From: Escherichia coli O157:H7
GTDB lineage: Bacteria; Pseudomonadota; Gammaproteobacteria; Enterobacterales; Enterobacteriaceae
Length of the DNA stretch: 64,000 nucleotides
Assembly (NCBI RefSeq): GCF_013167455.1
Contig: NZ_CP038328.1
Direction: 5' to 3' (one strand)
The notes under the pieces are model-generated. The model was not told where the DNA came from and made no database searches. It saw only the letters and a list, made by a program, of their open reading frames with translations. Within the stretch, counting starts at the first letter, position 1. Each line of letters starts with the position of its first letter. Shown here piece by piece: positions 22,709 to 23,548 of this stretch. Both the position numbers and the translations under genes were made by a program.

Positions 22709-23278
22709 TCAATCCGCCTTTGTTATTTTCCCTTTGCCTGTATCAGCCAGGACAAAATCAATCAGCATATTCGCTTCATTTACCAGCGTACGGATTTTTG
22801 ATACATGCGCGGCTTTAACCTGTTTCCACTCATTCAGCCCGGTAGCAAACACACTGGCAATGTTTTTATCCCGTTTCATGTCAGCACAAGCCTGGTTGAG
22901 TTCTTCCATCACGCTCATTTTACGGGGATTAACGACAAAACCCTTCGTCCAGTACTCGTAAAGAACATCGTCGCACTCTTCCTGATACCGGATGACCTTA
23001 TCGCGGATTTCGGGTTTTACTTTGTTGGGATTAATGGTTTGTAGCCAGCCGGCAAGTTTTCGAAGTGGCATGGACACCATATTGCGTTGTTTCCCATCCT
23101 CAGCAACCATAACGATTTCCGTTATAGTTGACGCAAAACGCTGTCTTAACTTAGCCAACTGTGATTGCCAGGCCAGCCCCATCCCCGCAACGACAGGTTT
23201 CATGGGAACGTATGGTTCGCCATTATGGTTAACTACATAAAGAGAGTTGCCGTGAAACGGCACGGCCATCATATTCAT
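22709..23278 (-). CDS. Bro-N/antirepressor-like DNA-binding protein (moron inside the lysis cassette)
   Basis: 189-aa ORF between the endolysin and Rz, with its own upstream intergenic region; family call from N-terminal motif by eye. Confidence 0.5.
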   Translation of the reverse strand: MNMMAVPFHGNSLYVVNHNGEPYVPMKPVVAGMGLAWQSQLAKLRQRFASTITEIVMVAEDGKQRNMVSMPLRKLAGWLQTINPNKVKPEIRDKVIRYQEECDDVLYEYWTKGFVVNPRKMSVMEELNQACADMKRDKNIASVFATGLNEWKQVKAAHVSKIRTLVNEANMLIDFVLADTGKGKITKAD

Positions 23279-23548
23279 CGGTTATTTCCTTTTAGTGATG
23301 AACCTTGTCTCACAGGAATCCAGCCCACAGAAAGGCACCGACAGCCAAACCGGTATCCTCAAGGGTCATCCTGAAAGGTTCTGTGTTGTGAGATGCGCGT
23401 GAGATGCGCAGAAATGACAAAGGCATCATTACGGTGCCTGAGTGTTAAACAACTGTTTTGACTTTATTCACTTACATTTTGCCAATTTGCAGGATTTCGT
23501 GTTATCCGTCCATGTAAGCAAACCTCATTTTTCAGCAAAATATTCTTC

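Follow-up and report, generated by a model that had tools for sequence, protein, structure and literature searches.

Comparative evidence for a conserved structured leader RNA upstream of ant in the lysis cassette of an Escherichia coli O157:H7 prophage

The lysis cassette described here lies in a 64,000-nt stretch of Escherichia coli O157:H7 DNA (contig NZ_CP038328.1; hereafter the window). Its genes, all on the minus strand, are the holin gene S (~24087–24302), the endolysin gene R (23549–24082), the 189-aa gene ant, also called d_ant (22709–23278, with its ATG at 23276–23278), a small hydrophobic open reading frame (ORF) of 48 aa (22563–22709), the i-spanin gene Rz (22088–22555), and Rz1, embedded in Rz (22150–22335). 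The S, 48-aa, and Rz1 coordinates come from the ORF list, as do those of R and Rz, for which the phage VT2-Sakai and VT1-Sakai annotations agree; R encodes a SAR-type lysozyme of 177 aa with an N-terminal signal-arrest-release-like segment. A sequence-only reading of the window had singled out the 189-aa ORF, together with about 270 bp of noncoding DNA containing a direct repeat, as an insert between R and Rz in a normally contiguous cassette. Both the ORF and the gap are real, the gap measuring exactly 270 nt from the R stop to the ant start (23279–23548), and the insertion is borne out by comparison with cassettes that lack ant. The description of the gap as plain noncoding DNA did not survive: most of it is a conserved leader, predicted to be structured and to pair with the Shine-Dalgarno (SD) sequence of the gene. 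It is this leader RNA and the conserved endolysin–Ant–spanin arrangement that are worth following.

The whole conserved leader is ~131 nt long (23279–23409, minus strand) and scores 173.6 bits with covariance model R1. Its 5′ end is formed by a hairpin, P0 (GCGC-AUCUCAC-GCGC, 23395–23409, minus strand as for all elements that follow), which is found in all variants. Downstream lie the 5′ strand of P1 (CACAGAA, 23379–23385), an anti-SD sequence (CCUUU, 23374–23378), the 5′ strand of P3 (GAUGACCCUUG, 23360–23370), and the 5′ strand of P2 (AGGA-UA-CCGG, 23350–23359). Their partners follow as the 3′ strand of P1 (UUCUGUG, 23326–23332), the 3′ strand of P2 (CUGG-AU-UCCU, 23314–23323), the 3′ strand of P3 (CAAGGUUCAUC, 23297–23307), and the SD sequence of ant (AAAGG, 23288–23292), which sits 9 nt before the ATG and is paired in the consensus structure. 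In the predicted fold, the CCUUU:AAAGG pairing, P3, and P2 (AGGA..CCGG:CUGG..UCCU) join into one long irregular helix, besides which there is a small apical hairpin. The 3′ strand of P1 is located in the apical loop enclosed by P2 and P3, and since P1 crosses the other helices it constitutes a pseudoknot.

The direct repeat reported in the gap exists, although not quite in the register first given (tgagatgcgcg), in which the second copy agrees at only 10/11 positions. A repeat search places an 11-mer, GTGAGATGCGC, twice in tandem at 23388–23398 and 23399–23409 with 100% identity (23388–23409 in all; GCGCAUCUCAC on the coding strand). In the alignments, other lineages have only an imperfect second copy, and the repeat can be described as P0 with an added copy of its loop and 3′ arm, a duplication specific to the lineage. 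No second copy of the leader is found within the window. A leader-encoded small peptide (ORFs of 39 aa and 26 aa) was considered and dropped, as the gap ORFs of at least 20 aa are not conserved as frames; 1-nt indels between homologous copies shift the frame, and the stop positions differ between variants. The GGA motifs of the leader (CAGGAUG, GAGGA, and the SD sequence) were noted as possible CsrA-binding sites.

The base pairing of the leader is supported by compensatory changes in three alignments. Among 74 variants, 95.9% of cells are paired, compared with 29–48% in slid controls, 0 of 500 shuffles reach this level, and 5 of 38 pairs are changed on both sides. Among 80 sequences, an alignment that includes divergent second copies found by the covariance model, 98.4% of cells are paired and 21 of 39 pairs have changed on both sides (slid controls, 2–5 pairs; shuffles, 0/500). 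Among 29 cross-genus sequences, 95.2% of cells remain paired and both sides have changed in 31 of 39 pairs (slid controls, 3–9; shuffles, 0/500). Across genera all four P0 pairs show compensatory changes (GCGU/ACGC etc.), and in the cross-genus alignment so do 11 of 12 pairs in the helix that contains P3. P1, which was left out of the covariance model, occurs as twelve compensatory helix variants, among them CUCAGAA/UUCUGAG, CGUCGA/UCGACG, CACCAAG/UUUGGUG, and CAUCGAG/UUCGAUG, and its 5′ strand lies immediately 5′ of the anti-SD in every variant. The anti-SD:SD helix was predicted independently by RNAalifold; CCUUU:AAAGG is present in every close copy, and in divergent copies the anti-SD covaries with a differing SD sequence (CCUGC:GUAGG, CCGUUC:GAAGG). 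These comparisons demonstrate a conserved structured RNA, with a predicted architecture of a 5′ hairpin, an SD-sequestering helix, and a pseudoknot; two features expected of cis-acting SD-sequestering leaders, a structure supported by compensatory changes and an SD sequence within a conserved helix, are both found here.

The P2 strand also has a second possible partner. Its CCGG (23350–23353) can pair either with the proximal UCGG (23338–23341), giving a small hairpin, or with the distal CUGG (23320–23323), and both partners change along with it in divergent copies (TCAG/CTGA, CCAG/CTGG, GCAG/CTGC). The proximal hairpin is not claimed here; it is seen in 21 of 23 variants, with a chance probability of 0.2–0.5 in each. 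Two co-varying partners are compatible with a switch, without establishing one.

The leader appears to be undescribed. At its position, Rfam models give nothing at E ≤ 1 in a 9-kb scan, and 401 nt scanned at E ≤ 10 yield just two chance matches (E > 5); known RNA families (ribozymes, riboswitches, C4, isrK) were dropped for want of an Rfam match at the leader. Literature searches by locus tag and by leader sequence found no published description of the RNA.

The leader is not confined to ant. The sequence at 23409–23279 is 87–93% identical to DNA upstream of unrelated genes, with the similarity ending at the start codon. In the Salmonella P22-like phages SE1, MG40, and 118970_sal4, in a Klebsiella phage, and in a lambda-like phage, unrelated genes with the leader stand after Rz. 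An exact 15-mer of the leader matches 120 loci in viral contigs, a second conserved block is present in 112 of 129 matches, and the leader occurs in about 300 enterobacterial phage records out of 50,697 phage records. Its cargo includes KilA-N-type regulators (phrog_129, phrog_1136), Rha-like proteins (phrog_518, phrog_2657), Ant types (phrog_524, phrog_63), two families of HNH endonucleases, and a protein of 491 aa, and the gene upstream of it may be Rz, R, or one encoding an unrelated protein. Since HNH endonucleases and the 491-aa protein are among its cargo and genes outside the lysis set can precede it, the leader goes neither exclusively with antirepressor-type genes nor exclusively with the lysis cassette. 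The leader stands before HNH genes (phrog_99, phrog_3593) or the 491-aa protein in L014, L040, L080, and other viral contigs. A P22-like contig (L021, 3365–5461, minus strand) carries three tandem cassettes, each composed of a terminator, a leader, and a Bro-network gene, between Rz and the small terminase gene; the cassette genes encode 251 aa, 165 aa + 85 aa, and 176 aa, and the middle leader, although strongly diverged (60.9 bits), retains all pairings.

The position of ant is conserved beyond Escherichia. Two-domain ant homologues with 60–94% identity occur across Enterobacterales, and nine of their loci were picked by protein identity alone rather than by RNA sequence. In seven of them (Serratia, Proteus, Providencia, two Xenorhabdus, Hamiltonella, and Arsenophonus), ant lies between an endolysin and an Rz-like spanin gene; in Photorhabdus it is just past the spanin gene, and at a rearranged Sodalis locus it comes after a terminase gene. 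From locus to locus the families of holin, endolysin, and spanin vary. In Serratia and Providencia, the stop codon of ant overlaps the start of the spanin gene. With the covariance model, a leader is detected upstream of ant at seven of the nine loci (Photorhabdus, Serratia, Hamiltonella, Proteus, Providencia, and Xenorhabdus); in Sodalis it stands upstream of a Rha-like gene instead of ant, and the model finds no leader at the Arsenophonus locus. That the endolysin–Ant–spanin order recurs in several genera whose holins, endolysins, and spanins are unrelated suggests that Ant does something needed when the cell lyses, with a role tied to the lysis period.

Within lambdoid phages, ant is an additional module that can be exchanged, set into a lysis cassette whose genes are otherwise contiguous. 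In phage Stx2_KH16-043, R is followed directly by Rz, with nothing between them, and PhiR5_2 and Stx2_EH2201 carry different small ORFs at the R–Rz junction. These two phages have the first 94 nt past the R stop in common with the window (to 23455) and then differ in cargo; similarity to PhiR5_2 picks up again at 22694, at the 48-aa ORF. The boundaries from this comparison give a module of about 23454–22695, and the R-proximal spacer of 94 nt (23455–23548, minus strand), which is 83–93% identical to ant-less cassettes, is part of the R flank rather than of the ant module. The G+C content of the module is 44–48%, compared with 50–61% for R and Rz. The same 94-nt stretch is kept in cassettes with other cargo (PhiR5_2, Stx2_EH2201, Stx2c phages), and by these alignments the R–Rz junction appears to be a slot in which insertions recur and whose left border is conserved.

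As a gene, ant is ordinary. Positions 22000–24400 are 100% identical to VT2-Sakai and VT1-Sakai, in which the 189-aa ORF is annotated ant; it corresponds to L0109 of 933W, H0027 of VT1-Sakai, and d_ant of Phi24B, with the same sequence, the same R–Rz position, and no difference. It is therefore the known ant (d_ant) cassette of Shiga toxin (Stx)-type lambdoid prophages, already annotated, and its detection adds nothing to the annotators' records; the VT1-Sakai record treats the ORF as equivalent to 933W L0109, with the note "possible regulation of host cell lysis". The National Center for Biotechnology Information pipeline PGAP names the product "phage antirepressor N-terminal domain-containing protein", and the protein belongs to phrog_524, "anti-repressor Ant". 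At least 80% of the stretch is present in 246 phage records, and the ant module occurs in 849 of 5426 complete E. coli genomes (median, three copies; maximum, nine), with multiple copies in enterohemorrhagic E. coli O157 and other Stx-producing E. coli. In the searched literature, the function of the gene in Stx-converting phages is inferred from its name alone. [quoted passage not shown] The ant that Fogg et al. knocked out and assayed is another gene, which lies upstream of qut and resembles the C terminus of P22 Ant (PMC3064807), and the Phi24B "ant" papers were for this reason dropped as data on the lysis-cassette gene. Our literature searches found no published experiment on lysis-cassette ant, and the gene goes unmentioned in the Phi24B lysogen expression study. 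Both the name "antirepressor" and the idea of expression in the lysogen are thus without an evidence base for lysis-cassette ant, the only experiments concerning another ant.

A Pfam scan of the Ant protein identifies P22_AR_N (residues 5–113, E = 2.3e-45) and ORF11CD3 (residues 122–164, E = 1.8e-5), the latter accounting for the C-terminal half, which is modelled as a two-helix hairpin. The protein had been called Bro-N-like by the sequence-only reading; the Bro-N profile (PF02498) is unmatched in the Pfam scan, which besides P22_AR_N and ORF11CD3 returns one chance match only, and the label is apt only loosely, in that both domains are listed in the "Bro network", a set of phage proteins that swap domains (Iyer et al. 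2002; PMC10111431). By its domains, Ant belongs to this network, whose members are usually annotated as antirepressors. It shares the N-terminal P22_AR_N with the P22 antirepressor but has ORF11CD3 in place of P22_AR_C, which the Pfam scan does not find, and it thus lacks the P22-type Ant architecture. NCBIfam models and PADLOC defense-system models are likewise unmatched by the protein. A search by sequence returned no solved relative and fold comparison gave zero significant matches; DNA-binding and antirepressor activity of Ant are putative.

The sequence-only reading took ant for a moron with an independent promoter that could be active in the lysogen. The sequence evidence on how ant is transcribed lends this no support, and by the refuting conditions which that reading set for itself, the promoter half of the proposal fails. 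The 270-nt gap contains no sigma-70-like site, either in a consensus pattern scan or by eye, and no conserved −35/−10 elements precede the leader among about 90 variants. In 63 of 83 distinct upstream flanks of relatives, a strong hairpin and T-run, an intrinsic terminator, stands right before the leader; in several variants the T-run abuts P0 directly, and nothing is conserved between terminator and P0. The window retains what appears to be a decayed form of this element (GGCACC-GUAAU-GAUGCC followed by UUUGUCAUUU, 23412–23438, minus strand), at −3.6 kcal/mol compared with −10.3 in a PA2-type copy and −8 to −11 in Salmonella and lambda-like copies. No terminator was found downstream of ant, which is packed into the late lysis operon: its stop codon and the start of the following ORF have one base in common, and that ORF ends 7 nt before Rz. 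Two further candidates were dropped by eye: a sigma-54-like TGGC...TGC in the loop, in which the spacing is wrong and variable, and, as in T4, a promoter within the leader whose transcripts would skip the anti-SD, for which nothing convincing was seen.

We consider it probable that ant is read as part of the late transcript from pR′, antiterminated by Q, on which S, R, and Rz also lie, and that the leader occludes its ribosome-binding site (RBS), so that translation is held low or gated. Under this model, transcription of ant would be late only. The leader would fold into P0, the helix made up of anti-SD:SD, P3, and P2, and the P1 pseudoknot between the 7 nt 5′ of the anti-SD and the apical loop; the folded RNA would hide the RBS, and Ant would be repressed or gated post-transcriptionally until some factor opens the structure. 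In most relatives, the upstream intrinsic terminator would also block transcription that is not antiterminated; in the window its hairpin has decayed. The leader offers one testable handle on the expression of a large, poorly understood class of phage genes.

Several observations weigh against this model. Occlusion of the SD in a predicted structure is not proof of regulation, and the P2 5′ strand has two possible partners, so that the fold as drawn may be one of two states. The helix of the Proteus copy merely abuts the SD sequence, with partial pairing. The single-sequence folding energy is unexceptional (z = −0.84 relative to shuffles, with the pseudoknot unscored), and thermodynamic support for the leader was dropped because this minimum-free-energy z-score is insignificant. 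Sequences were aligned so as to fit the nested structure, and because close relatives make up most of them, about 12 divergent copies account for many of the compensatory counts. On the side of transcription, the terminator hairpin of the window is weak, and a missing consensus promoter is still compatible with a weak or activator-dependent one.

Such an arrangement finds its closest analogies in the RNAs that control other antirepressor genes, namely sar (P22 ant), c4 (P1/P7 ant), CI (P4), and CA (N15). In c4 RNA–icd–ant of P1/P7, P4 CI RNA, and N15 CA RNA, a structured RNA lies immediately upstream of an antirepressor-type gene of the Bro network and a segment of it is complementary to the RBS region, as appears to be the case here. 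The leader differs from these RNAs in its match to neither the C4 nor the isrK model of Rfam, in its predicted architecture of hairpin, long helix, and pseudoknot, and in its pairing, which is proposed to occur in cis. In P22 immI, the translation start of ant is targeted by RNA pairing from the antisense RNA sar, a likeness to the pairing proposed here, but the window ant has no mnt/arc and no evident antisense promoter, and its pairing would be in cis within the 5′ leader. P22 ant also lies inside a late operon. The hairpins of phage T4 e, soc, and I-TevI and pseudoknotted translational riboswitches such as SAM-II and preQ1-II are SD-sequestering leaders, with which this RNA, as predicted, shares an RBS buried in a conserved helix and a pseudoknot next to the anti-SD strand. 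No internal late promoter bypassing the 5′ strand, as in the T4 genes, is seen in the leader, and it resembles no Rfam riboswitch either by sequence or by model.

A bolder extension of this model, to which we give only tentative and rather doubtful standing, would make the leader a new class of RNA switch that senses a ligand, protein, or RNA and gates interchangeable late cargo (Ant, KilA-N, Rha, HNH) in temperate Enterobacterales phages. The alternative P2 pairings and P1 would then represent its two states, and Ant would be a conserved accessory of the lysis cassette rather than a lysogeny antirepressor.

Among competing explanations, the classical moron would place a promoter of its own in the 270-bp gap, and ant, a regulator or antirepressor, would be made while the prophage is repressed. 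ant does resemble the morons of lambdoid late operons (Juhala et al. 2000): it is an extra gene that separates neighbors of related phages, is missing from related cassettes, and is lower in G+C, and the region downstream of pR′ is reported to tolerate moron-like insertions. The upstream hairpin of the window is, moreover, too weak for a good terminator, and a pattern scan could miss weak or non-consensus promoters. Unlike morons, however, ant has no detected pair of an upstream promoter and a downstream terminator, within the reach of that scan; the terminator, where present, lies upstream, strong in most relatives, and ant is coupled to the downstream lysis genes by the overlap of its stop with the ORF leading into Rz. 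With the gap devoid of a sigma-70-like site and the published lysogen expression and knockout data belonging to the different ant upstream of qut, independent transcription of ant as a moron is most likely not the case, and we regard this explanation as unlikely.

We judge it about equally unlikely that a small RNA is processed from the leader, as with P1/P7 c4, P4 CI, and N15 CA, and that its anti-SD would block ant-type RBSs in cis and in trans, for instance in polylysogens. Known antirepressor genes are indeed controlled by RBS-pairing RNAs (c4, sar, CA), the leader is directly upstream of its target with a stable 5′ hairpin at its start, and near-identical leaders occur in up to 9 copies per genome and in tandem cassettes. 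On the other hand, the Rfam C4 and isrK models find nothing at the leader, no terminator or processing signal was identified between anti-SD and SD, and the two partners are 80 nt apart in one helix, which favors action in cis.

Least probable of all is that the leader matters mainly as DNA, serving as a linker for swapping Bro-network and HNH cargo by homologous recombination or as a homing target, with its RNA fold secondary: one sequence does precede at least 12 unrelated cargo genes with similarity ending at the ATG, HNH endonucleases are among the cargo, Bro-network genes are known for domain swapping (PMC10111431), and the sequence identity exceeds what pairing alone needs, but compensatory changes in 31 of 39 pairs, including the pseudoknot, are unexpected for a recombination linker, and the element has diverged greatly in distant genera yet keeps the same pairings. 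Readings of the leader as cos, att, or another DNA site are disfavored by the covariation and by its variable position in the late operon.

The 48-aa ORF that follows ant shares one base of its ATG with the ant stop and ends 7 nt ahead of the Rz start. Its frame is intact, with zero indels at 75–80% nucleotide identity, the ant-less PhiR5_2 cassette included. PGAP lists it as "hypothetical" (WP_000539792.1), it is unannotated in RefSeq VT2-Sakai, and PADLOC defense models give zero matches; it could be an unrecognized small membrane protein of the lysis cassette.

Other RNA features were noted elsewhere in the window. The Rfam anti-sRNA AgvB matches 27076–27137 (plus strand) with 96 bits, above its gathering score, together with an overlapping weaker AsxR match (43 bits), and STnc100 matches 27138–27330 (minus strand) with 150 bits, convergent with AgvB. 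The position of AgvB and STnc100 corresponds to that downstream of pR′ where Stx phages carry stx, and no stx-sized ORFs are seen there. On this basis, the window looks like a non-Stx lambdoid prophage with a late region of the Stx-phage type and lambda-like terminase and portal genes. A tRNA-like match (37 bits) is located at 27417–27476 (minus strand), and an isrK match below the Rfam threshold at 29527–29608. Near the Q region, a match to the sok antitoxin RNA (29767–29942, minus strand, 120 bits) implies a hok/sok module.

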